Below, one piece after another: positions 15,254 to 35,049 of a DNA stretch of 64,000 nucleotides; the stretch's first letter is position 1; each line of letters starts with the position of its first letter. The position numbers were made by a program, and so were the translations under genes. The stretch comes from an uncultured Bacilli bacterium (GTDB lineage Bacteria > Bacillota_I > Bacilli_A > RF39 > UBA660), in contig CANRAF010000004.1 of NCBI GenBank assembly GCA_947628535.1, forward strand, positions 8,566 to 72,565, read 5' to 3'. Below the pieces are notes generated by a model. It saw only the letters and a list, made by a program, of their open reading frames with translations, had not been told where the DNA came from and searched no databases.

Positions 15254-16360
15254 TTAATTCTTTATTATTTTAGTAATATCCTTCATTTTTAAATCATCAT
15301 TTTTTATTTCATAATATAGACTTTCAATTGGTTTTAATAAGAGCATTAATAAAATGAAAATTACTGCAATTGTTTGATATAAAGTTTTTTCTTTTAAATT
15401 TTTTAAAAGTTTGTTTATTAGAGTATTAAATAAATTATTAATTTTAGATGTGCTAAAAATAATTACTAGGATAAGCGTTAAAATTAATGCATATAATACA
15501 TAGATATCATCGTATGTTTTATAAGAAAAGATTTTTTGAAATATTAAAGTAAATGGTCTATGAATTAGATATATTAAAAGGCAGTATTTTCCAGCATTTG
15601 TAATAATTTTAAGTTTTTTATCAGGAATTATTATATAAAGAGTGAATATAGCAATTAAACTTATAATAATTAAACCAATCCTAATAAAGACATCTTCAAA
15701 ATCTTTGTAATGATAATATAAAAGTTTATTAGTAGAAATACCTAATTTTGTAGTTACTAAAAATGTTATTACTATAATGGAGCTTATAAGTAAGCAAATT
15801 AAAAATTTTTTAAAATTTTTAGTGTTTTGAAATTTAATTTTTAAATTTTTAAAATCATATTTGTAACCTATTAGGAAAAATGGAAAAAATGCTATTGTTC
15901 TTACTATTGATAATGTATTTCCAACATCACTCCAATAACCAATTAGTATAGAGATAAAAATACTAATTGGAAGAATGCCTTTTATTTTTGAAAGTGGTCT
16001 TATCATAAGACGCCAAGCTATTACTGAAAGCAAATACCAATATGAATATTGTGCTACTAAAAGATGAAATGAGTTTTCATGAAGATAAAATCTTGTAAAT
16101 AGCATTAAAAAGGTATTAAAAATTAAATATATTACTATTAATTTAGCATATGATTTTGCTTTGAAAACATTTTCACTTCTACTTAAATAACCTGTTGTAA
16201 AAATAAATGCTGGCATGTGAAAAAGATAGATAAATGTAGTTATATCACTTGCTAAAGTATTTGTAAGATGAGTTTTATATGTAAAAAGGAAATGAGCAAA
16301 GACTACAAGTATTATTAGTATTCCTTTATAATTATCCCAAAATGCACTTCTCTGTTTCAT
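15254..16360 (-). CDS. Acyltransferase family 3 (OafA/YrhL-like) membrane O-acyltransferase.
   Basis: N-terminus RSAFWDNYKGILIILVVFAHF matches the acyltransferase-3 signature. About 10 TM helices. First gene of the surface-polymer locus. Confidence 0.75.
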   Translation of the reverse strand: MKQRSAFWDNYKGILIILVVFAHFLFTYKTHLTNTLASDITTFIYLFHMPAFIFTTGYLSRSENVFKAKSYAKLIVIYLIFNTFLMLFTRFYLHENSFHLLVAQYSYWYLLSVIAWRLMIRPLSKIKGILPISIFISILIGYWSDVGNTLSIVRTIAFFPFFLIGYKYDFKNLKIKFQNTKNFKKFLICLLISSIIVITFLVTTKLGISTNKLLYYHYKDFEDVFIRIGLIIISLIAIFTLYIIIPDKKLKIITNAGKYCLLIYLIHRPFTLIFQKIFSYKTYDDIYVLYALILTLILVIIFSTSKINNLFNTLINKLLKNLKEKTLYQTIAVIFILLMLLLKPIESLYYEIKNDDLKMKDITKIIKN

Positions 16361-16420
16361 TTTTTATCCCCCTATGTTATTATAGCATTATTTTATTAAA
16401 TAAAAAAGACATGATTCTTA

Positions 16421-17716
16421 TTATTTTTTCATATCTTTTTCGTTTAACTCTTCAAGCTCTTTTATATATTTTTCATAAATATGGCGTCTTCCAATTTGGT
16501 CTGGGGCCTGTGTTAAATCAAAGTTTGGCATACTATTTCCTTCAATTAGTTCAATTTCTCCTTTTTCTGTTATTGCGATATCCCATCCAATATGCCTTAA
16601 CTCTGGAATAAGCCTACCACATTCTTCAATTGCTTTTATGATTTTATCAAAACATGGTACTTGAAAATCTTTAAATTTTACTTTGCTATCAGGGTGAATA
16701 TCAGAGTATCTGTGATACATATCTATAGCATCAGATATTATTTTTCCTGTTTTTGGATCTACTATAGCTCCCATTCCACCACAATGGAAATTATCTACAT
16801 CTTTTCCTTTTCTACCAAGTCTTGCGCATGCAATTAATATTCTTACTTTATCATCTGCACAACGAAGAGAATATACTCTAATAGTATTTAATGTTGTTCT
16901 ATTGAATTTTGCCATATCTTTATGTTGTTTTACTATTTCTTCAACAATAAAATTATGGTCTTTGCAGTATTCATAAAGTTCATTAGTACTATTAAAATTT
17001 TTAGAATCAATAATGCATGCTCCACCCCCCCCAGTACCTTCTATAGGTTTAGCAAAAAATTTAGGGAATTCTTTTACAAACTTACTAAATTCTTCTTGGG
17101 TCGCAGTATTAGCATTTAAAAATTTTCTTTTAACATATTTTTTAAATGTTTTATTAAATTGTTCTTTATCCTTTAATAAATAGATAAATTCTCTATTATT
17201 TGCGGCTTTATATACTTTATATACCCATCCTCTGTTTAAGAACTTTTCTGATTCTTCAAATGTTCTATTGTATAGTTCAAAATCAAAGAAATCATGATAC
17301 CAGTAACCATTTACTTTATAGGTATATAAAAATTTTATTAATAAATCCACCATGTCTTTATTAGTATTTTTAAAAAGATGGACTTGTCTTTTATAAATTT
17401 TTTTAAATCCTCTCATTTCAAATTTTATTTTATCTAAATACTCATTATCTTTAAAAACTATGTGTTTAACGTTTTTCTTTATGTCAGACTTAAACTCTAA
17501 ACTATCTAATATATAAGTCTTGTGAATAGGAATATTTTGTATTTCACGGTATTCCTCAGGAAGTTTTGTTTTAGTTATAAGACATATTTCTCTAACTGTA
17601 AAAAGAGGAACATTTTTATATACATATGTTTTTTTAGGATTAACTTTCTTATATATTTTCTTTAATTTTCTTTTTACTTTTCTCACTATTTTCATTTGAA
17701 ACCACTCCCTAGTCAA
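16421..17716 (-). CDS. ATP-grasp_ST (sugar-transfer-associated ATP-grasp) amidoligase paralogue A (431 aa). Contains an in-frame G8 tract.
   Basis: Family motifs FAKPIEGTGGGGACIID (Gly loop), VEEIVKQHKDMAKFNRTTLNTIRV, RLGRKGKDVDNFHCGGMGAIVDPKTGKI, HPDSKVKFKDFQVPCFDKI and IGWDIAITEKGEIELIEGN. Confidence 0.7.
   Translation of the reverse strand: MTREWFQMKIVRKVKRKLKKIYKKVNPKKTYVYKNVPLFTVREICLITKTKLPEEYREIQNIPIHKTYILDSLEFKSDIKKNVKHIVFKDNEYLDKIKFEMRGFKKIYKRQVHLFKNTNKDMVDLLIKFLYTYKVNGYWYHDFFDFELYNRTFEESEKFLNRGWVYKVYKAANNREFIYLLKDKEQFNKTFKKYVKRKFLNANTATQEEFSKFVKEFPKFFAKPIEGTGGGGACIIDSKNFNSTNELYEYCKDHNFIVEEIVKQHKDMAKFNRTTLNTIRVYSLRCADDKVRILIACARLGRKGKDVDNFHCGGMGAIVDPKTGKIISDAIDMYHRYSDIHPDSKVKFKDFQVPCFDKIIKAIEECGRLIPELRHIGWDIAITEKGEIELIEGNSMPNFDLTQAPDQIGRRHIYEKYIKELEELNEKDMKK
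17035..17042 (-). repeat. Homopolymeric G8 tract (C8 on the plus strand) encoding the Gly-rich loop of ATP-grasp paralogue A.
   Basis: Plus strand tccaCCCCCCCCagt. On the coding strand it reads GGT ACT GGG GGG GGT GGA = G T G G G G. Confidence 0.9.
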
Positions 17717-18452
17717 GATTTTTCATATATTCTTCATATTTATCTACTACTTCTTGGGCAGGCCCATCACCTTTTATTTCACCTTCGTTAAGCCAAATTA
17801 CTCTATCGCAAAGTGATTTTAAGGTTTTAGAACTATGTGATACTATAATTACTGTTCTATTTTCATCATTTATTAATTCTTTCATTTTGTTGTAACTTTT
17901 TTCTCTAAAATGAATATCTCCTACTGACAATACTTCATCAATTAACATAATATCTGTTTCCAAAATAGCTGTTATTGAAAAAGCAAGTTTTGAATACATT
18001 CCTGATGAATATGAGAGTACAGGTTTATAGATAAAATCCCCAAGTTCGGAAAATTCTATTATTTCGTCTAAACGTTTTTTTATTTCTTCTTCAGTATACC
18101 CGAGAAGAAGTCCTGATAGAAAAATATTTTCGTATCCAGATAATTTTCTTTGGAATCCTACTCCAATTGAAAGTAAAGAAATGCTGTTTCCATGAAGATC
18201 GATTTCTCCACTATCTGCTGAAAATATACCTGCTATTGCTCTTAAAAGAGTAGATTTCCCACTACCATTTTTCCCGCATATTCCTACTATTTCACCTTTA
18301 GGTATTTCAAAAGATACATTTTTTACAGCATGGAAATTGCGAGCATTTACTAAATTATTTAAACCAGATTTAGCTATAGAAAATCTTTTTATTTCCTTAT
18401 AGAAAATATTTAAATTTTTAACTGTTATTGCTATTTTTTCTTTTTTTGCCAT
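17709..18452 (-). CDS. ABC transporter ATP-binding protein, TagH/Wzt-like polysaccharide or teichoic-acid exporter.
   Basis: Walker A GKNGSGKST, ABC signature YSSGMYSKLAF, Walker B IMLIDEVLSVGD. Start overlaps the permease gene. Confidence 0.85.
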   Translation of the reverse strand: MAKKEKIAITVKNLNIFYKEIKRFSIAKSGLNNLVNARNFHAVKNVSFEIPKGEIVGICGKNGSGKSTLLRAIAGIFSADSGEIDLHGNSISLLSIGVGFQRKLSGYENIFLSGLLLGYTEEEIKKRLDEIIEFSELGDFIYKPVLSYSSGMYSKLAFSITAILETDIMLIDEVLSVGDIHFREKSYNKMKELINDENRTVIIVSHSSKTLKSLCDRVIWLNEGEIKGDGPAQEVVDKYEEYMKNLD

Positions 18453-19240
18453 TATCTCATCACCTTTACATAAGTATTTTCATATTTATAGATTGTTCTT
18501 ATTCCAAGTAGTGCAAGTAAAAGCCCAATAACGAACCATGCACCCATCAAGGTGAAATCCATACTCATGCCATATAATAAAACATCACGGCACTGCGTTA
18601 TGATCGCGGCTACTGGATTGGCTACTATTAATATCTCATTGTATGGCTCTGGGACTCTTTTATCTAAGGCAAAGAATACACCTGAAGCGTAAAATACAAG
18701 TCTTAAAGCAATTGTAGTAATGTTAGCTAAATCTTGAACAAATACTCCAAAATGCATAAATATAGCACAAATACCAAATGTAAATATAAATAGTATTATA
18801 AAAATTGGGAAAAAATATAGAACATTCCAAGTTATAGGTACTTGGTAAATAGCCATACAAATTATTACTAATAAGAATGAAATAAAGAATTTTACAGAAT
18901 TTATGGACATTCTAGTAAGTAAAAGAATAAATTTTGGGACATACACTTTTGTTACAGTATCTCTATTTGAAAGGACTAAACGAACACTTGCAAGTAAACT
19001 TTTTTGAAAGAAACTCCAAATTGTAAGTCCAATAAATACGAACACAGGGAAATATTCAACACTTGAATTGAATACAACAATTGCTATAAATGTATAAATA
19101 AGCATAAAGCAAATTGGTTCTAAGAAAAGCCAAATCCAGCTTAAATATGATCCTGCTATTTCAGCTTTTAATCCAGATTTTGTTGCATATGCTATGTATT
19201 TAGAATATTTCTTTAAATCCTTAAAAAATCTTTTTATCAT
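18452..19240 (-). CDS. ABC-2 type permease (TagG/Wzm-like).
   Basis: 262 aa, six TM segments, ABC-2 membrane-domain architecture. Immediately upstream of the ATPase gene. Confidence 0.8.
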   Translation of the reverse strand: MIKRFFKDLKKYSKYIAYATKSGLKAEIAGSYLSWIWLFLEPICFMLIYTFIAIVVFNSSVEYFPVFVFIGLTIWSFFQKSLLASVRLVLSNRDTVTKVYVPKFILLLTRMSINSVKFFISFLLVIICMAIYQVPITWNVLYFFPIFIILFIFTFGICAIFMHFGVFVQDLANITTIALRLVFYASGVFFALDKRVPEPYNEILIVANPVAAIITQCRDVLLYGMSMDFTLMGAWFVIGLLLALLGIRTIYKYENTYVKVMR

Positions 19241-19845
19241 TCTTTATCATCTTCCTTTTGTTTTTTAAAGCTTTCATATTCATCGGGTGTATTATAATCA
19301 ATAGTATTTTTATCTACTATTATAAATTTATCTTTTATTTGTTTTACATCAAATTCAAGGTTTTGAAATGATTGATATATTTGCCAGCCTTTACAGTTTC
19401 TTATTTTGCCTGAATTAAATAAATTTCTTACATTTTCAATGTGTTTTTTAAATAAAGATGAATCTTTTACTTTAATAGCAACAATTGATTTTTCATTTCC
19501 AAAGAATAAAATATCTTCAGGTTCTGTTTCAATTATTCTTTTTATATCTTTATCTGAATAATAAGTATCTCCATAAAGAAAACAAATATTGTTTTCAATA
19601 AGCTCAGCTGTAAATCTATCTAATTCAATTATATTTTGATTTGGTTCATATCTTGTTGCACCTTCAACTTCATATCTTTTGTCATGAGAAGTTATAATTA
19701 TTTCACTATTTTTATCAAACTTTTTAAGTTGTCTTACTATTCTCTCTAAAATAACTTCGCCATTTATTTTCATCAAATGTTTTGGTGTATCTTTATAGTT
19801 GTTCCATCTTTTGCCTTTCCCATCGGCCATTATTATATATTTCAT
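19237..19845 (-). CDS. MobA-like/LicC-like nucleotidyltransferase. Putative phospho-alcohol or sugar cytidylyltransferase.
   Basis: N-terminus MKYIIMADGKGKRW...TPKHLMKINGEVILERIVRQL matches the NTP_transf_3 G-x-G-x-R motif and the following PK(A/H)L motif. Confidence 0.55.
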   Translation of the reverse strand: MKYIIMADGKGKRWNNYKDTPKHLMKINGEVILERIVRQLKKFDKNSEIIITSHDKRYEVEGATRYEPNQNIIELDRFTAELIENNICFLYGDTYYSDKDIKRIIETEPEDILFFGNEKSIVAIKVKDSSLFKKHIENVRNLFNSGKIRNCKGWQIYQSFQNLEFDVKQIKDKFIIVDKNTIDYNTPDEYESFKKQKEDDKE

Positions 19846-19863: not shown

Positions 19864-20991
19864 TTATTTTTCTTTCATTTTCTTAATAATGTAATCAGTT
19901 ATTAATTCAGTTGATTTACCAAGTTTTTTTGGTAAATATTTTTTTCTAAATTCTTGATAAGCTTTATTATCATAATTGTTCTTTCTTATTATTTCAATTA
20001 AATCTTTAACTCTTTTTGAAGAACATGTTGGAAGCACTTTATAAGCATCTAAGTTTATTCCATTATCTTTCATATATTTATCATAATCATATACGTAGAA
20101 TAACACTTTTTTATTTAAAATAGCAGCCTCTAAACAAATAGATGAGTAATCAGTTATTACGTAATCTGCTACTGTTAAAAGTTCAGTAGATTTAAATTCT
20201 GGGCATTCATATGCTTTACTTTTACTAATATCTATTTTTTGATTAGGATGCCCTCTTACTATTAAAATAAAATCTTCCTTTTCACATTCTTTAAGAAGTT
20301 TTTTAGGACCATCTACTTCATATGTTCTAAATGTTGGAGCGTAATAAACTATTTTTTTGTTTTTAAATTCAGGATATTTTTTATAAATTTCTTTTTTTAG
20401 ATTTTTTTCATTATCTAAAAGATAGTCTATCCTTGGAAGACCAAAATGTAATAAAATATCTTTTTTTACATTAAAGCCAGCCTCATAAAATTCATCAAAG
20501 GACTCTCCTCCTGCTAATATAGCATCATAGTTTTTATGCATACACATAAGATTAGCCATTTGTTTGCTTCTGCCAGATGTAGTATCTAAACTTTGATATC
20601 CTGACTTTTTAATTTTACCAATTGAATGCCATATTTGCAAGACAAATAGTGATTTTTTATGTTTTAGTATACATACTGGTATGCAATAGGAATCTATTAT
20701 AGCAATTTTTGAAGTTGCTAAATGATACATTTGTTTTAAAGTTAGAAAAAAGAATTTAATACTATTAATTATACCTTTTTTCATTCTTCTGCAGATAAAA
20801 ACCATTTTTATATTTTTATCCTTTTTTTCTAAACTTTCCTTTATTAAACGAAAATCAACGTTTATTTCATCAGTTTGTCTACTTATAAATACTACTTTTT
20901 TATTATTAGTAGGTAAAAGTTTTAAAAAGAAATATATTATTTTTAAAACGGCTTTAAATATGTGAATTAACAATACTTTCATAGTTATCAC
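19864..20991 (-). CDS. CDP-glycerol glycerophosphotransferase (TagB/TagF family).
   Basis: C-terminal half carries YYAPTFR, RGHPNQ, and ITDYSSICLEAAILNKKVLFYVYDYDKY, which are characteristic of the TagF-family catalytic domain. Confidence 0.8.
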   Translation of the reverse strand: MITMKVLLIHIFKAVLKIIYFFLKLLPTNNKKVVFISRQTDEINVDFRLIKESLEKKDKNIKMVFICRRMKKGIINSIKFFFLTLKQMYHLATSKIAIIDSYCIPVCILKHKKSLFVLQIWHSIGKIKKSGYQSLDTTSGRSKQMANLMCMHKNYDAILAGGESFDEFYEAGFNVKKDILLHFGLPRIDYLLDNEKNLKKEIYKKYPEFKNKKIVYYAPTFRTYEVDGPKKLLKECEKEDFILIVRGHPNQKIDISKSKAYECPEFKSTELLTVADYVITDYSSICLEAAILNKKVLFYVYDYDKYMKDNGINLDAYKVLPTCSSKRVKDLIEIIRKNNYDNKAYQEFRKKYLPKKLGKSTELITDYIIKKMKEK

Positions 20992-28301: not shown

Positions 28302-28319
28302 AATAATTCCTCCTATTTA

Positions 28320-28348: not shown

Positions 28349-28349
28349 T

Positions 28350-28509: not shown

Positions 28510-28515
28510 AATTAT

Positions 28516-28544
28516 ATTGTATCAAAATCTTTTTTTTATTTCAA
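28516..28544 (-). promoter_or_regulatory. Sigma-A-type promoter driving the candidate sRNA.
   Basis: Minus strand reads TTGAAA, a 17-nt spacer, then TACAAT. The predicted +1 falls at the start of the closing helix (about 28509). Confidence 0.4.
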
Positions 28545-28581
28545 TATTTTTACTACTTATTTTACAGATTAATTTACTAAT

Positions 28582-30168
28582 TTAAACTGTTTTTTCATCT
28601 TCATCAAACCAAATGTATTTATCTATTGTATCTCTTATTCCTTTTCCTTTAGCTATAGCCCAGTAGTATTGCTGTAAAGTTGCATCTCCATCATGATTTC
28701 CTTCAATTAGTTGAACGCTCCCATCTTCGTTTATTACAGCGTCCCAACCAACATATGAAACAGTTTTAACAACTTTTGCAGCCTCTTCAACCATTTTTAA
28801 TACTTTATCCCATGATGGAACTTGAAAGCCTTTAAACTTTACATTTGAAATTGGATGTTTTTCTACAAGCTCTCCAAATTTTGTACTACCATCACCTATT
28901 ATTTTACCAGTTTTAACATCAACTGGAGCAATTACTCCGCCGGCAGACCAATTATCAATAAAGCTTCCTCTTGAGGCGCCGAATCGCACTGTTGCATTTA
29001 TTATATCTACTTTGCCATCCTTATAATATGTATGAATTCTTATAGTGTTTACTGTTTCAGAGTTAAATTTTGCCATATCTTTATGCTGAATTATTATTTG
29101 TTCTACTATTCCCTTTTTATAATGTTTTATCTTTTTATATGTTATATAGTTGATAATTTCATATTTACTGACTTTATATTTTCTTATACCTACACCACAT
29201 GCAGTATCTAGTGGTTTAAATATAAATTCTTTTTCTCCGTTTATTAATTTTTTGTACTCATTATAATTTAATGTTTCTACAGAATACCACTTTCTTTTTA
29301 TCCATTTTTTAAATTTGTTATTAAATAAAATTTTTTTCTTGAAATATTTCCAAGTATCTGCATAATCAGTTGACCTTAAATATAGCTTTCTCCAAACTTC
29401 AGTTGTGATAAATTCTTTTTGTTTTTGAGGATTCATTTTATATAGGTTATATACATCAAATTCATGAAAATTGCTGCCACAATTTATTCTTGATTTTAAT
29501 ATTTCAAGATTAAGTTTAGCTTCGTTCCAATTCATTTCTTCCATTATTCTTCTTCTGTCTTTATCTTCTTGTTCATGAATTATCTTGTTTGCTAAAGGAA
29601 TTCTTTTTGATCTTATTTTTTTGTATTGTTCTATGTTTTTTAATTCTTTAGATGAAAGACTATATTTTCCGCTTACAATAAATTTTAATTCATTATAGTT
29701 TTTTTCTTTAGCAATTTTTAATCGTTCTTCTGCTTCCTCTTTAGAACAATTTGTTTTCTCACTTATGATGTTTATATACCATTTTTTATTTAAATTTCTT
29801 TTTTCAATTGATTTTTTAATAGTTTCTTTAAGTGATTCTTTATCTTTTTCAGTAAGGTCCCATACTTTATATTTATAATATTGCCATAATTTTAAATCAT
29901 ATTTTTTTGCATCATTTAAAATTTGTTTTTCGGATAAACTAGACTCTTTATTTATTTTTTTTATGTACTCTTTTTTCTTTTTTTCATTTTCTCCAATCAT
30001 TTTTAACTTATTTTTATTTAAACAATAGTATTTATACTTTACATAATCATTGATGCTTATTCCACATATTTTGGCATAAATTATTTTACTGGTTGATTTT
30101 ATAACTCCTTCTCCGGTATTTTTCTTAACTTTTCTTATACATCTTATTAGTTGTTTTAATTTTTTCAT
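28582..30168 (-). CDS. Long ATP-grasp_ST amidoligase paralogue P1 (528 aa). N-terminal triple-repeat domain plus C-terminal ATP-grasp.
   Basis: C-terminal motifs KPLDTACGVGIRKYK, NTIRIHTYYKDGKVDIINATVRFGASRGSFIDNWSAGGVIAPVDVKTGKI, HPISNVKFKGFQVPSWDKV, VGWDAVINEDGSVQLIEGN. The N-terminal 250 aa carry three repeats of about 30 aa (AKICGISINDYVKYKYY / AKKYDLKLWQYYKYKVW / AKEKNYNELKFIVSGKY). Confidence 0.7.
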   Translation of the reverse strand: MKKLKQLIRCIRKVKKNTGEGVIKSTSKIIYAKICGISINDYVKYKYYCLNKNKLKMIGENEKKKKEYIKKINKESSLSEKQILNDAKKYDLKLWQYYKYKVWDLTEKDKESLKETIKKSIEKRNLNKKWYINIISEKTNCSKEEAEERLKIAKEKNYNELKFIVSGKYSLSSKELKNIEQYKKIRSKRIPLANKIIHEQEDKDRRRIMEEMNWNEAKLNLEILKSRINCGSNFHEFDVYNLYKMNPQKQKEFITTEVWRKLYLRSTDYADTWKYFKKKILFNNKFKKWIKRKWYSVETLNYNEYKKLINGEKEFIFKPLDTACGVGIRKYKVSKYEIINYITYKKIKHYKKGIVEQIIIQHKDMAKFNSETVNTIRIHTYYKDGKVDIINATVRFGASRGSFIDNWSAGGVIAPVDVKTGKIIGDGSTKFGELVEKHPISNVKFKGFQVPSWDKVLKMVEEAAKVVKTVSYVGWDAVINEDGSVQLIEGNHDGDATLQQYYWAIAKGKGIRDTIDKYIWFDEDEKTV

Positions 30169-30181
30169 TATATACTTCCTT

Positions 30182-31756
30182 TCACTTGATATATGGCTTT
30201 ATTATATTTAAAATTCCTTTTTCTTCTGTGATTCCATAAATAGATTGGAATACACGCATTGCATGATTATGGTTTCCTTCGATTAATTCGATTTTGTTAT
30301 CATTAGTAATAGCGATATCCCATCCAACATATACTACATCTTCAATTTTTTTTGCTACCTCATTTATTGTTTTTATTACTTTATCCCAATTAGGTATTTG
30401 GAAACCTTTAAATTTTATATTTGAGATTGGATGAGTTTTATAAATATTTCCTTTTTTATCTGCACCATCAGTATCAATTTTACCTGTTTTAGTGTTGATG
30501 CCCGCGATTATTCCGCCTGCCGACCAGTTATCATAATTATTTTTTACACCTGTCCTAAAAACAGCTGCTAATATATTTACTTTCCCGTCAACTTTAATTG
30601 TTGCTATACGAATAGAATTACATGATTCTTCATGAAACTTTGCAGTGTCTTTATGTTGAATTATAAATTCTTCAATTAATCCGGGTCCGCTTTGCATTAT
30701 ACATTCGTAAACATTTCTATTTTTCTTTTCGTTTTCGTTTACCTTAAATTTTTGAAAACCCTTGCCTTCCTGCATATCTAATGGCTTATAGGCAATTAAA
30801 TTTAATCCTTTTATATTTTTTTCGAAATCTTCAAATGTTAGATTTTCTGTTAAAAACCATTTTCTATTTATCCATTTTTTAAAGGTTTTATTAAATAAAG
30901 ATTTGTCTTTAAAATATTTATACTTTTCTTTTGGAACCCAATACTTTATTTTCATTTTAAAATGATTATCTTCTGTCATGAATTTACGTTGTTCTTCTTT
31001 TGATTTATTATATAGTTTATAAAGATAATATTCATCTCCATTACAACCACAATTTATTCTGGCATTAATATAGTTTATACGATATCTTCCAATACTAATC
31101 CCCATTTCATTAGAAGCTTTTAATCTTTGATTTTGTTTTTCTTTTTGTTTTTCTTCAAAACTTTTTTCTTCCTCTTTTGAAAGAATTGGATTCTCTTTTT
31201 CTTTTAAATTTTCTAAGTCTTTTTTACTTAATAAATATAAATCTTCTGTTATGAATTTTTTGTATGAATATCCTTTTTTTCTAGCAATATCCATTCTTTC
31301 TATTGCTTCTTGCTCCTTTAAATTAGTTTTTTCCATTACAACTTTTGCATACCATAATTTGTTCTTTTCATTTTTTTCTTGTAACTTATCAAGTGCTTGT
31401 TTGTATTCCTTTAACTCCTCTAGTGTGAATTCCCACATCCTGTCTTTTATAAACATTTTATAAGTTATTCCAAGTTTTTGAGAAGTTTTAACTAGCTTTA
31501 TTGCTTCGCTTTTACTAACCCCCCCCCCAGCATATTTTTGGGTCTTTTTTATTGCTTCTTTTTTTAGTTTTAGTATTTCTCCAAGTTCAATCAATTCTTC
31601 TTTTTTCTTTTTATAACTTTTATTTTTTGCATAATCATTTAGACTTATTCCATATTTATGTGCCTTTATTAGCCTTTTTATTATTTTAAAACTATTCCAT
31701 CCTGTTTCTCGTTTTATCTTATTAAAGTTTTTTATCTTTTTCTTCATGTTTTTCAT
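30182..31756 (-). CDS. Long ATP-grasp_ST amidoligase paralogue P2 (524 aa). Contains an in-frame G10 tract.
   Basis: KPLDMQEGKGFQKFK, NSIRIATIKVDGKVNILAAVFRTGVKNNYDNWSAGGIIAGINTKTGKI, HPISNIKFKGFQIPNWDKV, VGWDIAITNDNKIELIEGN. N-terminal repeats AHKYGISLNDYAKNKSY / SQKLGITYKMFIKDRMW / ARKKGYSYKKFITEDLY. Confidence 0.7.
   Translation of the reverse strand: MKNMKKKIKNFNKIKRETGWNSFKIIKRLIKAHKYGISLNDYAKNKSYKKKKEELIELGEILKLKKEAIKKTQKYAGGGVSKSEAIKLVKTSQKLGITYKMFIKDRMWEFTLEELKEYKQALDKLQEKNEKNKLWYAKVVMEKTNLKEQEAIERMDIARKKGYSYKKFITEDLYLLSKKDLENLKEKENPILSKEEEKSFEEKQKEKQNQRLKASNEMGISIGRYRINYINARINCGCNGDEYYLYKLYNKSKEEQRKFMTEDNHFKMKIKYWVPKEKYKYFKDKSLFNKTFKKWINRKWFLTENLTFEDFEKNIKGLNLIAYKPLDMQEGKGFQKFKVNENEKKNRNVYECIMQSGPGLIEEFIIQHKDTAKFHEESCNSIRIATIKVDGKVNILAAVFRTGVKNNYDNWSAGGIIAGINTKTGKIDTDGADKKGNIYKTHPISNIKFKGFQIPNWDKVIKTINEVAKKIEDVVYVGWDIAITNDNKIELIEGNHNHAMRVFQSIYGITEEKGILNIIKPYIK
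31480..31640. repeat. Near-identical DNA segment of about 160 bp shared with 34780..34940 (paralogues P2 and P4).
   Basis: By eye the two stretches are almost identical, for example ...cttttactaaCCCCCCCCCCagcatatttttggg(t/c)ttttttattgcttctttttttagttttagtatttctccaagttcaatcaattctt... Confidence 0.7.
31519..31528 (-). repeat. Homopolymeric G10 tract (C10 on the plus strand) within paralogue P2 (codons about 76-79, ...KYAGGGVSKS...).
   Basis: Plus strand ctaaCCCCCCCCCCagc. The coding strand reads GCT GGG GGG GGG GTT = A G G G V. Confidence 0.9.
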
Positions 31757-31817
31757 ATCAAAATCTCTCCTTAATTATGTCTATATTTTAATTACAAATA
31801 TATTTTCTATATTAAGT

Positions 31818-33371
31818 CTATTTATCATTAAGATATTTTTCTACTAATGGCCTAACGCCTTTGTTTTCTATTACAGCATATGGATACTGAAATATTCTAA
31901 TTCCAGGATTATGATTTCCTTCAATTAATTCAATTTCACCATTTTTAGTTATTGCTATATCCCATCCTATATATGGCATTTTCGGCACTTCTTTTGATGC
32001 GTCTTTTAATTTTTTTATTATTTCATTCCATTTTGGAATTTGAAATCCTTTTATTTTTGTATTAGTATCTGGATGTAGCTCATAAATGTTCCCTTTTTTG
32101 TCTACTGCATCTGTTATAACGATTCCTGTTTTAGGATTAATTGATGCTACAAGACCTCCGGCAGTAAAATTATCTATGGTTTTTGTTTTATTACATCCCA
32201 TGCGAAGGGCTGCCATAATAATTTCAAATTTTCCATTTCTAATTATAGTCATAATTCTTATTGTATTTAAAGAGCCTGGATATATTTTACCTATATTTTC
32301 ATCTTGCTCTATAACTTCTTCTATTATATAATCTTTATTTTTAATTTTTTTATATGTAAAATAATCGCTAAAAATATTTCTATTTACTTTGTATATATTT
32401 ATTCCACTTCCACCATAATCATATAATGGTTTTACAATTATTTTATTAAGATTAGAAATTTTTTCTTTAAAATCATAATAATCTTCAAAATCTGATGCAA
32501 TAAACCATTTTCTATGTAAATAATTTTTAAATTTTTCATTGAATAGTGCTTTACTATCAAAAAATTTATAATTTCCTCCATAATCACAGTATTTTATACT
32601 CATTTTTAAACAAACTTCATTAGTCATAAATTCTTTTTGCTTATCCATATCATACTTGTATAACATTAATTGATAATAATCATTTAATTTCGCTTGGGAA
32701 ATTGCTCTTGATTTTAAAAATTCTATTTTAAATCTTGGCTCTGACCAATTCATTTCCTTTCTAATTTTTTGTTCATATTCTTTATTTTCTTTTTTTATCT
32801 GCTTAACATTTTTTTTCTTAAATACTGGTTTTGGATAAACTTTAATTTCTTCAACAGTTAATTTTTCTAATCCATTTAACATAAAATTAACTGTTGAATA
32901 TCCTCTTTCTCTAGCAATATTTAGTTTTTCAAGTACTTCATCTTTAGATTGGCCTGTTTTATCCATTGCTACTTTTATATACCATTCTTTGTCTTCTTTT
33001 GTTTTTTTATGTTTCTTGTTTAGTGCTTCACCATATTCAACTAGTTCATCTAAAGAAAAATTCCACATCTTGCCAAGTGTATACATTTTGTATGTTATTC
33101 CATATGATTGCGCTACATTCAATCGTTCCTTTCCCTCTTTTTTAGATAATTTTTGTTTCTTTATTGTTTTATTAAGGGCATTCTTTTTATATTTTAATGT
33201 TTTGCTAAGTTTTTTTAATTCTTTTATTGTCATATTATAACATCGATTTTTTATATATGGAGTCATAGTAATTCCATACATTTTAGCCATCATCAATTTT
33301 TTTATTATTTTAATATTGCTCCATTTTGTTGCTCTTTTTATTACCCTTAAATTTTTTCTAATTCGTTTCAT
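31818..33371 (-). CDS. Long ATP-grasp_ST amidoligase paralogue P3 (517 aa).
   Basis: KPLYDYGGSGINIYK, NTIRIMTIIRNGKFEIIMAALRMGCNKTKTIDNFTAGGLVASINPKTGIV, HPDTNTKIKGFQIPKWNEI, IGWDIAITKNGEIELIEGN. N-terminal repeats AKMYGITMTPYIKNRCY / AQSYGITYKMYTLGKMW / ARERGYSTVNFMLNGL. Confidence 0.7.
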   Translation of the reverse strand: MKRIRKNLRVIKRATKWSNIKIIKKLMMAKMYGITMTPYIKNRCYNMTIKELKKLSKTLKYKKNALNKTIKKQKLSKKEGKERLNVAQSYGITYKMYTLGKMWNFSLDELVEYGEALNKKHKKTKEDKEWYIKVAMDKTGQSKDEVLEKLNIARERGYSTVNFMLNGLEKLTVEEIKVYPKPVFKKKNVKQIKKENKEYEQKIRKEMNWSEPRFKIEFLKSRAISQAKLNDYYQLMLYKYDMDKQKEFMTNEVCLKMSIKYCDYGGNYKFFDSKALFNEKFKNYLHRKWFIASDFEDYYDFKEKISNLNKIIVKPLYDYGGSGINIYKVNRNIFSDYFTYKKIKNKDYIIEEVIEQDENIGKIYPGSLNTIRIMTIIRNGKFEIIMAALRMGCNKTKTIDNFTAGGLVASINPKTGIVITDAVDKKGNIYELHPDTNTKIKGFQIPKWNEIIKKLKDASKEVPKMPYIGWDIAITKNGEIELIEGNHNPGIRIFQYPYAVIENKGVRPLVEKYLNDK

Positions 33372-33486
33372 TTTTTACTCCTTAATTATTTTCACTATAT
33401 TCATTATAATTAGTTTTAAAAATATAGTCAAATAAAAAACATAGCATTTATCTCACAAAATATATGTATTACTATGTTTTTTTGTT

Positions 33487-35049
33487 TTATTTTAAATAGG
33501 GTTTTATGACATTACCTATACCTTTATCTTCTAAAAGAGCATACGCTGATTGAAAAACGCAGACATCATGATCATGATTTCCTTCAATTAGCTCAATATC
33601 GCCATTTTTGGTAATTGCAACATCCCAACCAATATATGGCATATTTTCTACAACAGTAGATGCTTCTTTTAATACTTTTACTATCTCTTTCCACTTAGAT
33701 ATTTGCTCGCCTTTAAATTTTTGATTTGTTATAGGGTGTTTTTTGTAGATATGTCCTTTTTTATCTGAAGCATCAGATATTATTTTTCCTGTTTTTGGAT
33801 CTATTATAGTTATTATTCCTCCAGTTGACCAATTATCATATTCATTATTTACTCCAATTCTAAGAACAGATCCAAGAATTGTAAATTTTCCATCTATATT
33901 CATAGTAGCAATTCTTAAAGTATTACAGGATTTATTATTAAATTTAGCAGTGTCTTTATGTTGAATTATAAACTCTTCAACAATTCCATTTGGTTGTTTT
34001 TTTATGTAATTATAAACTCTTTTATTTTGTTTTTTACTTTCATTTACTTCAAATTTTTTAAATCCTTTCCCCTGAAGACTACTAATTGGTTTATAAGCAA
34101 TTAAATTTAATCCCTTTATATTTTTTTCGAAATTTTCAAATGATAAATTTTCAGTTACAAACCATTTTCTTTTTACCCATTTCTCAAATGTCTTATTAAA
34201 CAATTCTTTATTTTTAAAATAAATATAATTTTTTTGATAATCACAATATGTAAATATCATTCTCCAATGCTTGTCTACAGTTATATAATTCCTTTGTTGT
34301 TTTTCGCTTTTATTATATAGTTTATATACTAAAAATTCTCGTTCACAACAACCACAGTTAAGCTTTGCCTTTTCACATTCAATTCTGTATCTGCTGTTAG
34401 TCCAGTTCATCTCTTCCATTACTTTTTTCTTATCTTGATTTATTCTTTTTCTTAGCTGCTTATTTTTTTTCTTATCAGTTTTTGATTTTGTATTGTCTTT
34501 TTTATTTAAACAATCTATTTCATTATTTGATAAAAGATACATATTTCGTATTATTATATCAGAATACGAATATCCTTTACTTGATAGTTTATTTATTGCT
34601 TCTAAAGCTTCTTCATTAGTAAGTTTAGATTTTTCACTAATTAATTTTACATAATATTCTTTTCTCTCTTTATAATTTATCTTTTTTAAATCTAATATTT
34701 CTTTATACTCTTTTAATTCTTCTTTAGTAAATTCAAAGCATTTATTATTTAAATATTTTTTATATGTTATACCAAGTTTCTGGGCAGTTTTAACTATTTC
34801 TATTGCTTTGCTTTTACTAACCCCCCCCCCAGCATATTTTTGGGCTTTTTTTATTGCTTCTTTTTTTAGTTTTAGTATTTCTCCAAGTTCAATCAATTCT
34901 TTATTTTTCTTTTTATAACCCTTGTTTTTTATATAATCGTCTAAATTTATTCCGTATTCTCTTGCTCTTACTAATCTTTTTATTATCTTTATATTATTCC
35001 ATTTTGTTTGTTTTTTTAGCTCTTTTAGATTTTCTGATGTCCTTCTCAT
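33487..35049 (-). CDS. Long ATP-grasp_ST amidoligase paralogue P4 (520 aa). Contains an in-frame G10 tract. Closest paralogue of P2.
   Basis: KPISSLQGKGFKKFE, NTLRIATMNIDGKFTILGSVLRIGVNNEYDNWSTGGIITIIDPKTGKI, HPITNQKFKGEQISKWKEI, IGWDVAITKNGDIELIEGN. N-terminal repeats AREYGINLDDYIKNKGY / AQKLGITYKKYLNNKCF / SSKGYSYSDIIIRNMY. Confidence 0.7.
   Translation of the reverse strand: MRRTSENLKELKKQTKWNNIKIIKRLVRAREYGINLDDYIKNKGYKKKNKELIELGEILKLKKEAIKKAQKYAGGGVSKSKAIEIVKTAQKLGITYKKYLNNKCFEFTKEELKEYKEILDLKKINYKERKEYYVKLISEKSKLTNEEALEAINKLSSKGYSYSDIIIRNMYLLSNNEIDCLNKKDNTKSKTDKKKNKQLRKRINQDKKKVMEEMNWTNSRYRIECEKAKLNCGCCEREFLVYKLYNKSEKQQRNYITVDKHWRMIFTYCDYQKNYIYFKNKELFNKTFEKWVKRKWFVTENLSFENFEKNIKGLNLIAYKPISSLQGKGFKKFEVNESKKQNKRVYNYIKKQPNGIVEEFIIQHKDTAKFNNKSCNTLRIATMNIDGKFTILGSVLRIGVNNEYDNWSTGGIITIIDPKTGKIISDASDKKGHIYKKHPITNQKFKGEQISKWKEIVKVLKEASTVVENMPYIGWDVAITKNGDIELIEGNHDHDVCVFQSAYALLEDKGIGNVIKPYLK
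34780..34940. repeat. Near-identical DNA segment of about 160 bp shared with 31480..31640 (paralogues P4 and P2).
   Basis: See the partner repeat. It includes the poly-G tract and encodes ELIELGEILKLKKEAIKK(A/T)QKYAGGGVSKS...QKLGITYK. Confidence 0.7.
34821..34830 (-). repeat. Homopolymeric G10 tract (C10 on the plus strand) within paralogue P4 (...KYAGGGVSKS...).
   Basis: Plus strand ctaaCCCCCCCCCCagc. Same codon context as the P2 tract. Confidence 0.9.

Follow-up and report, generated by a model that had tools for sequence, protein, structure and literature searches.

A variable gene island that may build a peptide-bearing surface polymer from a teichoic-acid-type export core and eight amide-bond ligases

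In the window analyzed here, a stretch of 64,000 nucleotides, a teichoic-acid-type export core lies together with eight amide-bond ligases and a likely epimerase, a combination that suggests a peptide-bearing surface polymer, probably built without ribosomes or NRPS enzymes. We tentatively read the locus as a surface-polymer island of variable content, seen here in one of its alleles, in which a ligase assembly line feeds an ABC-transporter-dependent route, and give this reading as a whole a probability of about 0.45. No description of such an island was found in the published literature.

Results

All genes named in an earlier, sequence-only reading of this DNA lie on the minus strand (Table 1), and profile searches supported their families, placing the ORFs in ATPgrasp_ST, CapA and TagF alike. 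The carrier of the island is an uncultured low-GC gut bacterium. Gene packing is tight, with stop and start codons that overlap or abut: the G3 stop overlaps the start of the PGA_cap gene, and the xseB ORF abuts the start of Mur-LRR. The housekeeping genes nusB, xseA and xseB, which the earlier reading did not mention, are outside the pathway, yet head the second gene run, and separate the four long ATP-grasp genes (G4-G7) from the remaining island genes. Their presence splits the interval into two operon-like units, probably two transcription units. The single cluster proposed between 15.2 and 35.0 kb thus holds as a set of functionally linked genes, though not as an uninterrupted one.

Table 1. 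Features of the island and their supporting matches.
Feature	Position	Strand	Evidence or remark
Acyltransferase-3 family integral membrane protein	15254-16360	-	Pfam PF01757 Acyl_transf_3, 1.4e-17
G1, ATPgrasp_ST ligase	16421-17716	-	PF14397, 1.2e-52
ABC transporter ATPase, TagH/Wzt-like short form	17709-18452	-	ABC_tran 6.1e-21
ABC-2 type permease, TagG/Wzm-like	18452-19240	-	weak ABC2_membrane, 22.7 bits
NT, small nucleotidyltransferase	19237-19845	-	weak NTP_transf_3/IspD, below gathering score
TagF-family CDP-alcohol phosphotransferase, single domain	19864-20991	-	PF04464 Glyphos_transf, 4.6e-54
G2, ATPgrasp_ST ligase	21042-22091	-	PF14397, 1.8e-42
PGA_cap (CapA/PgsA/MslH family) protein	22101-23285	-	PF09587, 2.2e-52
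G3, ATPgrasp_ST ligase	23285-24388	-	PF14397, 5.4e-48
Mur-LRR, MurF-like ligase + LRR_5	24472-26487	-	Mur_ligase_M 2.4e-33, Mur_ligase_C 8.2e-15, LRR_5 3e-28
nusB, xseA, xseB block	26488-28301	-	housekeeping genes embedded in island
xseB	26488-26715	-	75-aa ORF; L085 homologue matches Exonuc_VII_S
xseA	26705-27916	-	Pfam Exonuc_VII_L 3.5e-89
nusB	27900-28301	-	Pfam NusB 1.3e-30
Promoter-like site upstream of nusB	28320-28348	-	TTTACA-17-TATAAT, 11/12 matches, consensus match only
Terminator-like hairpin after G4	28377-28394	-	consensus match only
G4, ATPgrasp_ST ligase with N-terminal extension	28582-30168	-	PF14397, 1.4e-45
G5, ATPgrasp_ST ligase with N-terminal extension	30182-31756	-	PF14397
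G6, ATPgrasp_ST ligase with N-terminal extension	31818-33371	-	PF14397, 2.7e-51
G7, ATPgrasp_ST ligase with ~265-aa N-terminal helical-repeat extension	33487-35049	-	PF14397, 9.1e-42
Promoter-like site upstream of G7, ttcA-G7 intergenic	35086-35114	-	TTGACT-17-TATAAT, 11/12, consensus match only

All seven ATP-grasp paralogues match ATPgrasp_ST (PF14397; E ~1e-42 to ~1e-52, 144-179 bits, gathering score 31.4 bits). In the alignment the motifs K-P..G.G, N(T/S)(I/L)R, DN, HP, WD and E.N are invariant, and the ATP/Mg and catalytic residues are kept in all seven; the motifs noticed earlier are present, except that three of the paralogues have HPI(S/T) in place of HPD(S/T). Pairwise identity is 26-54%, the upper value being that of G7 and G5. 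G2 is the most divergent, and its sister clade 'G2b' is a long, or nucleotidyltransferase-fused, form. In a neighbor-joining tree the enzymes group in discrete orthogroups common to different genera, and those of the window come from at least four of them. Conserved orthogroups with intact catalytic residues suggest ordered, dedicated steps, and make the 'combinatorial' decoration proposed before unlikely. In the syntenic locus L003, G3 and G4 have orthologues (78 and 53% identical), while none was found there for G6. The true start of G1 is likely the ATG at 17695; P0001 is the 424-aa form of this protein. We know of no ATPgrasp_ST member with a demonstrated activity, so we infer only from fold and residues that these enzymes would ligate amino acids.

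The N-termini of these proteins are strongly basic or hydrophobic. Net charge over the first 40 residues is +10 to +13 in G1, G2, Mur-LRR, G4, G5 and G6, and G2, G3 (a Kyte-Doolittle segment at residue 15, in a hydrophobic helix) and TagF are hydrophobic at this end; signal peptides were not found on these enzymes (G1-G6, Mur-LRR, TagF). The first ~60 residues of G1 resemble the N-terminus of Mur-LRR (hhalign, 96.5%).

The assignments of exporter, cytidylyltransferase, TagF and acyltransferase-3 were correct by profile, with the matches of NT and the permease below gathering scores. With 375 aa, the TagF-family enzyme consists of one domain and begins with a hydrophobic helix. Among NCBIfam models it scores highest with the TarB primase (128.7 bits, cut-off 500), it matches TarL in the PDB at 1.1e-22, and from its sequence it looks more like a primase than a polymerase. 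NT, with a GxGxR-type motif at its N-terminus (MADGKGKRW), is presumed to be a CTP:alcohol-phosphate cytidylyltransferase; it has more than 1000 homologue clusters, and identity is 59-74% among the 120 listed. In L084 a TagD-type CTP_transf_like gene takes its place beside TagF, which points to CDP-glycerol. The permease has ~7 hydrophobic segments and, at 22.7 bits, falls below the ABC2_membrane gathering score (26.9 bits); the best matches of the ATPase are TagH NCBIfam models (200-218 bits, below equivalog cut-offs). ATPase, permease and TagF are 87, 77 and 76% identical in L003.

Neither a glycosyltransferase nor a TagO/TagA-type priming enzyme was found in the island or the 64,000-nt window. 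The 'glycopolymer' backbone suggested by the sequence-only reading is therefore unproven, this allele having no glycosyltransferase and a primase-like single TagF-family enzyme. An LtaS-like gene at 56.7 kb had been taken as a sign of a glycerol-phosphate backbone. LtaS polymerizes glycerol-phosphate from phosphatidylglycerol outside the cell, and is thus irrelevant to a CDP-alcohol/TagF pathway.

The acyltransferase-3 protein, with seven hydrophobic segments, adjoins G1-type modules both here and in L007, L008, L010 and L012, and a DltB-family MBOAT occupies its position in L001. This arrangement, like the LtaS-like gene, would suit a Dlt-like aminoacylation, in which the ATP-grasps activate amino acids or short peptides and a membrane acyltransferase passes them across, giving esters on previously exported teichoic or lipoteichoic acid. 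We consider this very unlikely. Both a carrier protein and an adenylating enzyme are absent, Acyl_transf_3 enzymes normally use acyl-CoA, and ATP-grasp acyl-phosphates are enzyme-bound intermediates for which we know of no hand-off to membrane acyltransferases; TagF, NT, exporter, PGA_cap and Mur ligase would also be left unexplained.

The PGA_cap, Mur_ligase and LRR_5 profiles bore out the proposed CapA homologue and the MurF-like ligase fused to leucine-rich repeats. Mur-LRR is a three-domain MurF-like amide ligase with a C-terminal BspA-type LRR_5 and no signal peptide. It scores 230.8 bits against TIGR01143 murF (cut-off 288.6), carries the MurF-type motifs GSIGKTS (P-loop), DSH and GDIFELG, and shares 30-39% identity with canonical MurF proteins among the matches listed. 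The N-terminal domain is homologous to that of MurF (hhalign, 98%), with the PF01225 match and the TDSR motif both absent. The same architecture occurs in at least 65 clusters, and distant members stand alone among housekeeping genes in L080 and L082.

Of the PDB structures, MslH (8gq9) matches the PGA_cap protein best, and the catalytic motifs NNHxxD and H..H of the two align; hydropathy revealed no transmembrane segment or membrane anchor. MslH and CapA have been described as epimerases (PMC10406935, PMC8179263). The alignment to MslH and the missing anchor fit an epimerase better than capsule export, and the protein is likely a cytoplasmic peptide C-terminal epimerase, although its catalytic residues are common to metallophosphoesterases and so equally compatible with a phosphoesterase role.

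A poly-amino-acid capsule is a possible, if unlikely, alternative. Here the G1-type ATP-grasp and/or Mur ligase, PGA_cap and a membrane protein would act as a PgsB/PgsA-like synthetase that polymerizes one amino acid (e.g., glutamate) and epimerizes it from L to D, with TagF and NT providing a glycerol-phosphate anchor only and TagGH exporting the product. PgsB is a member of the Mur-ligase superfamily and PGA_cap belongs to the PgsA/CapA family; in addition, PGA_cap is fused to Mur ligase and to ATP-grasp in other genomes, the acyltransferase-3/PGA_cap-LRR/G1 module of L008 has a Na+/glutamate symporter next to it, and CapA is a proposed PGA epimerase (PMC8179263). Against this, a homopolymer needs no seven ATP-grasps of such divergence in separate conserved orthogroups, the Mur enzyme has MurF motifs and is not PgsB-like, PGA_cap is without the membrane anchor of PgsA, and L085 has seven ATP-grasps with neither PGA_cap nor Mur ligase. 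There is also no PgsC-like gene, as all island ORFs of at least 100 aa are otherwise assigned and none matches a CapC model.

Synteny extends to at least 10 related loci, whose carriers belong to different genera and phyla. In relatives the island occupies one and the same place on the chromosome, marked by some or all of hisS, ttcA, nusB-xseAB and spoIVB, and TagF, cytidylyltransferase and exporter are always present where the contig extends far enough; these three form the fixed core. The number of ATP-grasps varies from two to seven (window 7, L003 5, L081 3, L084 2, L085 7). Mur-LRR, PGA_cap and glycosyltransferases are variably present, and genes shift between two slots flanking ttcA-nusB-xseAB; nusB-xseA-xseB is embedded likewise in L003, L081, L083 and L085. 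In L085 the ATP-grasps accompany TagF/NT/TagGH while Mur-LRR and PGA_cap are missing, and L081 has no PGA_cap, indicating that these two components are accessory rather than core. In the distant loci L001, L004 and L005, TagF, NT and TagGH are accompanied by PGA_cap, by G1, G2 and G3 and by one more ATP-grasp, whereas L011 shows the ATP-grasp/PGA_cap part only. TagF, G2 and NT form a trio that is found again in L007 and in L048 (Anaerofustis butyriciformans HA2171), and L006 has the G2-NT pair without TagF. In L008, L009 and L010, G1 occurs with PGA_cap-LRR without TagF or exporter, so this module may function independently.

Several fusion proteins join the components: Mur ligase-LRR_5-ATPgrasp_ST in L003 (a G1-type ATP-grasp joined to Mur-LRR), PGA_cap-LRR_5-ATPgrasp_ST (G1-type) in L006, L007, L009, L010 and L048, PGA_cap-Mur ligase in L010, PGA_cap-Mur-LRR in P0185, and ATPgrasp_ST-GT2 in L083. 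A 995-aa protein of L006 has an NT-like N-terminus (BLAST, 28% identity) and an ATP-grasp at its end. Together with the synteny, these proteins, which between them unite ATPgrasp_ST with Mur ligase, LRR_5, PGA_cap, nucleotidyltransferase and GT2, support a functional link among the genes.

Rather than lying scattered in relatives, the genes thus recur together. That an expanded paralogue family with unrelated roles merely lies near teichoic-acid genes has a negligible chance of being true, despite the interruption by nusB, xseA and xseB and the finding that most short ATPgrasp_ST homologues retrieved elsewhere lack any homologue of TagF, PGA_cap or Mur ligase closer than 10 kb. Seven paralogues, recurring synteny and fusions are far more than chance would give, and the tight packing also contradicts it.

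It is quite unlikely, too, that two systems adjoin here, an ordinary teichoic-acid primer/export set (NT, TagF, TagGH, acyltransferase) and one for peptidoglycan-precursor variation. The ATP-grasps would then make unusual di- or oligopeptides like Ddl/VanA, PGA_cap would supply D-residues in a racemase-like manner, and the MurF-like enzyme would attach the product to UDP-MurNAc-peptide or to a cross-bridge. The three MurF domains, motifs and identity of Mur-LRR are consistent with this, as are the G1/PGA_cap-LRR modules without TagF, and among known NCBIfam models are MurF-alanine racemase and MurC-Ddl proteins, comparable to the fusions of Mur ligase with PGA_cap and with ATP-grasp. However, ATP-grasps are fused to nucleotidyltransferase and GT2, TagF, G2 and NT keep together as a trio in different families, and the ATP-grasps of L085 stay with TagF/NT/TagGH though Mur-LRR and PGA_cap are gone. 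Mur-LRR also falls short of MurF in score and N-domain, and other mur, mraY and fem genes are absent from the island and from every relative.

Discussion

In the assembly line that we favor, cytoplasmic, membrane-associated ligases would build a peptide containing D-residues on an alditol-phosphate lipid-linked unit. NT would supply an alcohol phosphate in CDP-activated form, CDP-glycerol or a near relative of it being the most likely product, from which the TagF-family enzyme would transfer the phosphate-linked unit to a lipid-linked acceptor at the inner membrane face. Held at the membrane by their basic or hydrophobic N-termini, the seven ATPgrasp_ST ligases and the MurF-like ligase would add amino acids stepwise, giving an oligopeptide or short poly-amino-acid, while PGA_cap, acting like MslH, would invert the C-terminal residue to D as the chain grows. 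LRR_5 could serve as an intracellular docking site or scaffold that couples a G1-type ATP-grasp to Mur ligase or PGA_cap. The TagG/TagH-like transporter would export the completed lipid-linked product, to be modified outside the cell by the acyltransferase-3 protein. Domain families, intact catalytic residues, linkage and fusions are observed, and from them we infer substrates, step order and the roles of epimerase and scaffold.

Several observations count against this scheme. Glycerol phosphate has neither a carboxylate nor an amine on which to start a peptide, priming enzyme and glycosyltransferase are missing, and NT and permease score below gathering thresholds. The phosphoesterase option for PGA_cap, the accessory nature of Mur-LRR and PGA_cap, the G1/PGA_cap-LRR modules that lack TagF and exporter, and the stand-alone Mur-LRR proteins point the same way. 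Of the peptide- or amino acid-decorated polymer first proposed, the domains and linkage stand, whereas the glycan backbone is unproven, combinatorial use unlikely and the LtaS link irrelevant.

A characterized precedent exists for the proposed cytoplasmic ligase route, in a capsule exported by an ABC transporter. There Cj1438, in which a GT2 is joined to an ATP-grasp, carries out the amidation of capsule chains in the cytoplasm as they grow (PMC11800379).

Organization of the island

The window is AT-rich (~25% GC), carries nearly all its genes on the minus strand and has a GC profile with no anomaly suggestive of recent horizontal transfer. Every gene that the sequence-only reading had named between 15,254 and 35,049 (the island) lies where it was placed, and profile searches confirmed the families ATPgrasp_ST, PGA_cap, TagF, Mur ligase and LRR_5.

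Features of the island and the basis of their assignment
Feature	Coordinates	Strand	Basis or remark
acyltransferase-3	15254-16360	-	Pfam
G1 ATPgrasp_ST	16421-17716	-	Pfam
ABC ATPase (TagH)	17709-18452	-	best NCBIfam matches are TagH models
ABC-2 permease (TagG)	18452-19240	-	Pfam below gathering threshold; membrane topology
small nucleotidyltransferase (NT)	19237-19845	-	Pfam below gathering threshold; motif MADGKGKRW
TagF-family Glyphos_transf	19864-20991	-	Pfam
G2 ATPgrasp_ST	21042-22091	-	Pfam
PGA_cap/CapA	22101-23285	-	Pfam
G3 ATPgrasp_ST	23285-24388	-	Pfam
Mur ligase (middle and C-terminal domains) with BspA-type LRR_5 (Mur-LRR)	24472-26487	-	Pfam
xseB	26488-26715	-	75 aa; overlaps end of xseA; stop abuts Mur-LRR start
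xseA	26705-27916	-	inside island interval
nusB	27900-28301	-	inside island interval
promoter-like site before nusB, near-consensus	28348-28320	-	consensus match only
terminator-like hairpin after G4	28394-28377	-	consensus match only
G4-G7 ATPgrasp_ST (long forms)	28582-35049	-	Pfam
promoter-like site before G7, near-consensus	35114-35086	-	consensus match only

The contact of xseB with both its neighbors means that nusB-xseA-xseB head the biosynthetic gene run, in which the genes downstream of xseB mostly overlap or nearly touch. The 280-nt spacer between G4 and nusB (28302-28581) holds the predicted hairpin and a near-consensus promoter and has no Rfam match; nor did Rfam reveal any RNA element between 13 and 38 kb. 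Based on the housekeeping genes, the gene packing, the hairpin and the promoter-like sites, we therefore predict two operon-like runs, G7-G6-G5-G4 and nusB-xseA-xseB-MurLRR-G3-PGA_cap-G2-TagF-NT-TagG-TagH-G1-acyltransferase. Within the window no priming enzyme and no glycosyltransferase was found, TagO/TagA and a polymerase-sized TagF are likewise absent, and a 188-aa ORF (37377-37943) has no family match.

Related loci and fusion proteins

A scan with G1, taking one genome per species, yielded 277 relatives, for which 78 loci were fetched. The closest are metagenome-assembled genomes (MAGs) labelled "uncultured Tenericutes" or "Bacilli", and the landmarks hisS/ttcA, nusB-xseAB or spoIVB are common to the window and most of the five loci listed below.

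Gene content of five related loci
Locus	Content
L003	hisS-ttcA-two long ATP-grasps-nusB-xseA-fused Mur ligase-LRR_5-G1 (1027 aa)-G3-PGA_cap-G2-two ORFs without family match-TagF-NT-TagG-TagH-acyltransferase
L081	PIG-L and glycosyltransferase in place of long ATP-grasps; three ATP-grasps, Mur-LRR, extra GT2 genes
L083	PIG-L and glycosyltransferase in place of long ATP-grasps; ATPgrasp_ST-GT2 fusion; contig ends before TagF/exporter position
L084	adjoins spoIVB; Mur-LRR, two ATP-grasps and two PGA_cap; TagF has a TagD-type cytidylyltransferase as neighbor
L085	tandem array of seven ATP-grasps upstream of ttcA; xseB followed immediately by TagF-NT-TagG-TagH; Mur-LRR and PGA_cap lacking

From these loci it follows that TagF, the cytidylyltransferase and the exporter are the fixed core of the island, and nusB-xseA-xseB are embedded in it in all close relatives. 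The synteny comparison proposed in the sequence-only reading shows that the ATP-grasp copy number varies from 2 to 7 and that the genes stay linked. As genes move between the slots on either side of ttcA-nusB-xseAB, both halves of the interval noted earlier belong to one variable island. That interval (15.2-35.0 kb) is not an unbroken cluster, with nusB, xseA and xseB inside it. More distant genomes (L001, L004, L005) combine G1, G2, G3, PGA_cap and a further ATP-grasp with TagF, NT and TagGH, and one (L011) has the ATP-grasp/PGA_cap part only. Identity between the window and L003 is 73-87% for the core proteins and G3, ~70% for the flanking housekeeping proteins, ~53% for G1, G4 and G5/G7, and only 28% for Mur-LRR. 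Such uneven identity is as expected of a surface-antigen locus.

The strongest evidence that the island enzymes would act in a common pathway is the occurrence of fusion proteins. Besides the Mur ligase-LRR_5-ATPgrasp_ST protein of L003, PGA_cap-LRR_5-ATPgrasp_ST fusions are found in L006, L007, L010, L048 (Anaerofustis) and L009 (here with a second ATP-grasp), a PGA_cap-Mur ligase fusion in L010, a PGA_cap-Mur-LRR protein in the Mur-LRR family (P0185) and the ATPgrasp_ST-GT2 fusion in L083. PGA_cap-LRR_5 adjoins a G1-type gene in L008, L013 and L018, as does a PGA_cap gene in L012. The first ~190 residues of a 995-aa protein of L006 are NT-like by BLAST (28% identity), Pfam finding only its C-terminal ATP-grasp. 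Synteny and fusions together contradict a chance juxtaposition of these genes, which is scarcely credible. Pfam scans flanking G1 modules in other genomes revealed no consistent partner beyond acyltransferase-3. The stand-alone G1/PGA_cap modules and the MurF-likeness of Mur-LRR would also fit a pair of neighboring systems, of which one varies peptidoglycan precursors; this is distinctly unlikely, being hard to square with L085 and with the fusions to NT and GT2.

Other ligase-rich loci were encountered among the relatives. In a Selenomonadaceae MAG (L014, 2943-11710), two phosphoglucomutase/phosphomannomutase genes and the gene of an RTX-repeat protein flank five tandem ATPgrasp_ST paralogues of ~585 aa, whose ATP-grasp domain is N-terminal and whose last ~200 aa have no assigned family. 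A Vescimonas MAG (L016, 2777-13988) encodes two TagF-family proteins, one ATPgrasp_ST and three large multidomain ligases of Ddl-like/ATPgrasp_Ter type, and is by its predicted content another ligase-rich teichoic-type locus. A Lachnospiraceae MAG has a gene for a Na+/glutamate symporter (L008, 5226-6620) next to an acyltransferase-3/PGA_cap-LRR_5/G1 module, which hints weakly at glutamate as a substrate.

The ATP-grasp proteins

All seven ATP-grasp proteins match ATPgrasp_ST (Pfam PF14397) with E-values of 1e-42 to 1e-52 and 144-179 bits (gathering score 31.4), and their Pfam matches are to ATPgrasp_ST/YheCD only. The motifs recognized earlier by eye are real: K-P..G.G, N(T/S)(I/L)R, DN, HP, WD and E.N form an invariant core in 7/7 paralogues. 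With the nucleotide- and Mg-binding residues (Lys, Gly-rich loop, Asp, Glu-x-Asn) intact as in ATP-grasp enzymes, all seven look catalytically competent. A single-sequence PDB search with G1 gave no match, and no characterized PF14397 member was found in the literature.

The paralogues, at 26-54% identity, are old duplicates. In a neighbor-joining tree with their relatives they fall into discrete orthogroups common to several genera, namely G1, G2, a long "G2b", G3, a fourth short group and a G4-G7 group. Conservation of these orthogroups across genera argues for dedicated, non-redundant steps and not for interchangeable decoration; the "combinatorial" decoration suggested before is therefore unlikely. 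G2 accompanies NT and usually TagF (window, L007 and L048; L006 has G2 and NT only), so that it may act on or near the CDP-activated unit. The N-terminal extension of G4-G7 (~265 aa, four three-helix repeats) has no Pfam match and is rare, with 47 cluster representatives among 1.84 billion proteins. N-termini of the island proteins are mostly strongly basic, and hydrophobic in G2, G3 and TagF; this would suit enzymes bound peripherally to the membrane and working on a lipid-linked substrate, yet is only suggestive because the proteome is AT-rich and lysine-rich. In a profile comparison the first ~55 residues of Mur-LRR resemble G1-type ATP-grasp N-termini (96.5%). The G1 N-terminus was also considered as a MurF N-domain and rejected, as it matches only those ~55 residues of the Mur-LRR family and not canonical MurF.

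Mur-LRR and PGA_cap

Mur-LRR has a three-domain Mur architecture with the P-loop GSIGKTS (Mur_ligase_M and Mur_ligase_C by Pfam), an N-domain homologous to that of canonical MurF (hhalign, 98%) and a C-domain with MurF-type motifs. It stays below the MurF cut-offs (TIGR01143, 230.8 vs 288.6; PRK10773, 143 vs 551) and far below that of cyanophycin synthetase (TIGR02068, 49 bits, cut-off 850), and unlike canonical MurF homologues it has no PF01225 match. The architecture represents an unnamed family of at least 65 clusters. LRR_5 (98.7 bits in Mur-LRR) is best known from secreted BspA-type proteins. The N-terminus of the window protein is basic and non-hydrophobic and shows no signal peptide or anchor of the kind seen in BspA-type surface proteins, and in other genomes LRR_5 recurs between two cytoplasmic ATP- or metal-dependent enzymes. 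The domain must thus function inside the cell here, and we infer that it is a docking or scaffold module. Distant Mur-LRR proteins (L080, 10001-12118; L082, 6951-8954; ~35% identity; one cluster of 750 member sequences) are encoded in Clostridia by isolated genes next to rpsT, gpr and spoIIP (in L080 also lepA and hemN), with no ATP-grasp nearby, so the family is not restricted to the island and may have a second, sporulation-linked role.

PGA_cap scores 178.5 bits against PF09587 (gathering score 27). It has no hydrophobic segment and hence no N-terminal membrane anchor, and is soluble. Its best solved-structure match is MslH (PDB 8gq9), aligned over two short stretches only (E 1e-7); against the NCBIfam MslH model it reaches 43 bits (cut-off 700). 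MslH has a calcineurin-like fold with two His/Asp dyads (His88/Asp91 and His295/Asp11) and the metal ligands Glu44, Asn87, His259 and His261 (PMC10406935). Equivalents of Asn-His..Asp, His259 and His295 align in PGA_cap, His261 is aligned with Gly, and those of Asp11 and Glu44 were judged by eye only. The discoverers of MslH proposed CapA as the epimerase of poly-gamma-glutamate synthesis (PMC8179263). For PGA_cap an epimerase role is likely, and not more than that because the same residues occur in phosphoesterases; with MslH as best match and a soluble protein, it fits better than the capsule-protein role first assigned. A poly-amino-acid capsule of the PgsBCA type on a glycerol-phosphate anchor would account for the PGA_cap, Mur and RimK-like signals. 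We consider it unlikely, given seven diverged ATP-grasp orthogroups and a survey by ORF and Pfam that found no PgsC-like ORF in the island, the ligase partner being MurF-like.

TagF, nucleotidyltransferase and exporter

The single-domain TagF protein (375 aa) scores 184.2 bits against PF04464 (gathering score 22.1) and matches TarL (1.1e-22) and TagF (1.9e-11) in the PDB, remaining below the teichoic equivalog cut-offs for TarB (128.7; 500), TarL (100.7; 1000) and TarF (74.6; 550). The ATPase likewise scores 199.8 and 218.3 against TagH models (cut-offs 320 and 538), galactan Wzt following closely at 183.8, and the permease 22.7 bits (gathering score 26.9). The gene pair and its predicted topology would fit any O-antigen/teichoic-type exporter. 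NT belongs to a distinct small family, neither TagD nor TarI of wall teichoic acid synthesis, with marginal matches only to solved structures (PDB); the long NT-ATP-grasp fusion gave nothing useful against the PDB. The putative permease and NT assignments are supported by topology and motif, respectively, and by strong conservation alongside their neighbors.

Neighboring genes

A secreted transglutaminase-core protein with Flg_new repeats (38117-39628, minus strand) is encoded 3 kb upstream of the island, and its homologues in L001 (11405-12973) and L002 (1614-3206) directly adjoin G1-type ATP-grasp genes; it may be an extracellular partner, for example in peptide transfer or cross-linking. 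A VCA0040/DUF368-type undecaprenyl-phosphate translocase-like membrane protein (45604-46425, minus strand) suggests that polyprenol-phosphate-dependent envelope synthesis is present in the organism. LemA is paired with a DUF2207 membrane protein whose C-terminal tail is glycine-rich (39715-42000, minus strand), and the pair is conserved beside hisS in L083. The LtaS-like protein, a membrane protein of the sulfatase family (56663-58717), is encoded in a stretch at 56040-61606 (minus strand) together with an overlapping 208-aa ORF, a BrkB-family protein and a GGDEF protein of the membrane. This stretch lies 21 kb from the island and is unrelated to the CDP-alcohol route; LtaS, cited earlier as support for the backbone, is irrelevant to this pathway.

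A proposed pathway

With a probability of roughly 0.45, somewhat short of even odds, we read the island as an ABC-transporter-dependent pathway for an exported polymer bearing amino acids or peptides. In this pathway NT would make a CDP-alcohol, probably CDP-glycerol, since a TagD-type enzyme takes its place in L084, and the primase-sized TagF enzyme would load a lipid-linked acceptor with a phosphate-linked unit. Amino acids would be added stepwise by the ATP-grasps and the MurF-like ligase, PGA_cap would bring in D-residues and LRR_5 would couple partner enzymes; TagGH would export the product, to be modified outside the cell by the acyltransferase. This logic would mirror that of Alr-Ddl-MurF in peptidoglycan synthesis and of the ATP-grasp and Mur-like domains of cyanophycin synthetase. 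Weak points are that Mur-LRR and PGA_cap are dispensable in some relatives, that the window encodes neither a priming enzyme nor a glycosyltransferase, and that no characterized ATPgrasp_ST member was found. Of the "glycopolymer" first envisaged, the exported polymer with amino acids or peptides is the best reading; the glyco part is unproven, there being no glycosyltransferase in this allele.

A bolder version, which we put forward as doubtful, is a peptide assembly line that needs neither ribosomes nor NRPS enzymes. In it an MslH-like epimerase and eight or more stand-alone amide ligases (ATP-grasp or Mur type), held by cytoplasmic LRR_5 scaffolds, would make a D/L-oligopeptide of defined sequence for ABC export, starting from a lipid-linked glycerol-phosphate primer. 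The result, a teichoic peptide, would form a second "stem-peptide-like" component of the wall, separate from peptidoglycan, and its sequence would differ by strain through ligase gain and loss, much as O-antigens do through glycosyltransferases.

Should the model hold, abundant yet uncultured gut Bacilli and Clostridia would have an envelope polymer of a new, peptide-bearing class, and PF14397, the Mur-LRR_5 family and soluble PGA_cap proteins would gain their first functions. The model would also give BspA-type LRR domains a cytoplasmic role and offer a simple ligase-by-ligase system for D/L peptide synthesis. The variation between alleles suggests diversifying pressure on the product from phage or host immunity, in the manner of a surface antigen. 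One carrier, Anaerofustis butyriciformans HA2171 (L048), is listed as a named strain and not as a MAG, and may thus allow a direct test of the idea.

Comparison with known systems

The capsule pathway of Campylobacter jejuni HS:2 is ABC-transporter-dependent. Its enzyme Cj1438 (GT2 plus a TupA-like ATP-grasp), which amidates the growing capsule chain in the cytoplasm before its export (PMC11800379), is the closest characterized precedent: an ATP-grasp amide ligase in a surface-polymer locus, fused to GT2 as is ATPgrasp_ST in L083. In contrast to the island, where the family is PF14397, eight ligases are present and a uronic-acid pathway and glycosyltransferase are lacking, Cj1438 is TupA-like (PF14305) and is a single ligase through which glucuronate gains one amine (serinol or ethanolamine phosphate) (PMC11800379).

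With wall teichoic acid synthesis in Bacillus and Staphylococcus (TagD/TarI, TagB/TagF/TarL, TagGH) the island shares a TagF-family transferase, an adjacent cytidylyltransferase, a two-component ABC-2 exporter and the predicted location of all enzymes at the cytoplasmic membrane face. Unlike that system, every island match falls below the NCBIfam equivalog cut-offs, and TagO/TagA, a polymerase-sized TagF and a glycosyltransferase are missing. To our knowledge, ATP-grasp, Mur-type and PGA_cap enzymes occur in no known teichoic acid pathway. D-alanylation by Dlt uses the adenylating enzyme DltA, the carrier protein DltC, the MBOAT DltB and DltD. A comparable aminoacylation through acyltransferase-3 or an MBOAT adjoining G1 is very improbable: the adjacency is real in six loci, yet carrier and adenylating enzyme are lacking, no island protein matches a Dlt family, and an MBOAT is found only in the related L001.

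PgsBCA/CapBCA resembles the island in having a PGA_cap-family protein and a Mur-superfamily amide ligase. It differs from it by PgsC/CapC, absent here, and by a PgsB-like Mur enzyme, here MurF-like; the PGA_cap protein here is soluble instead of membrane-anchored, and the island adds seven ATP-grasp ligases and the TagF/ABC exporter set. Similarly, Alr-Ddl-MurF and cyanophycin synthetase join an ATP-grasp to a Mur-type ligase, with a supplier of D-residues in the Alr branch, and the Mur-LRR-G1 (L003) and PGA_cap-Mur (L010) fusions parallel the known MurF-Alr, MurC-Ddl and CphA proteins. Here the ATP-grasp family is another one, LRR_5 is extra and the context is teichoic-type export instead of dcw genes; in contrast to cyanophycin synthetase, the ligases are separate in the window, and LRR_5 lies between them in the L003 fusion. 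PGA_cap shares its aligned motifs and solubility with MslH, whereas the island substrate cannot be a lasso-peptide precursor. Literature on Lipocone, CA_C2195 and PC-esterase was consulted and is not relevant to the island.

No description of the system emerged from searches of the literature on PF14397/ATPgrasp_ST, or on ATP-grasp with teichoic acid, glycerophosphotransferase or PGA_cap, in line with the earlier view that this is not a described pathway; Iyer et al. (2009) lies outside this coverage. TupA/teichuronopeptide and WemR-type amidoligases are predicted to attach amino acids to polymers (Iyer et al. 2009, cited in PMC13419641). As far as PMC13419641 presents them, they are likewise ATP-grasp enzymes of surface-polysaccharide loci, of another Pfam family, and act as single enzymes without a link to a Mur ligase, PGA_cap or LRR_5. 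Polysaccharide loci with a single ATP-grasp amidoligase (Cj1438, TupA, WemR) are thus already known or predicted, whereas there appears to be no earlier description of a teichoic-type core that combines up to seven ATPgrasp_ST proteins with a MurF-like enzyme, a soluble PGA_cap and LRR_5 connectors in the cytoplasm.
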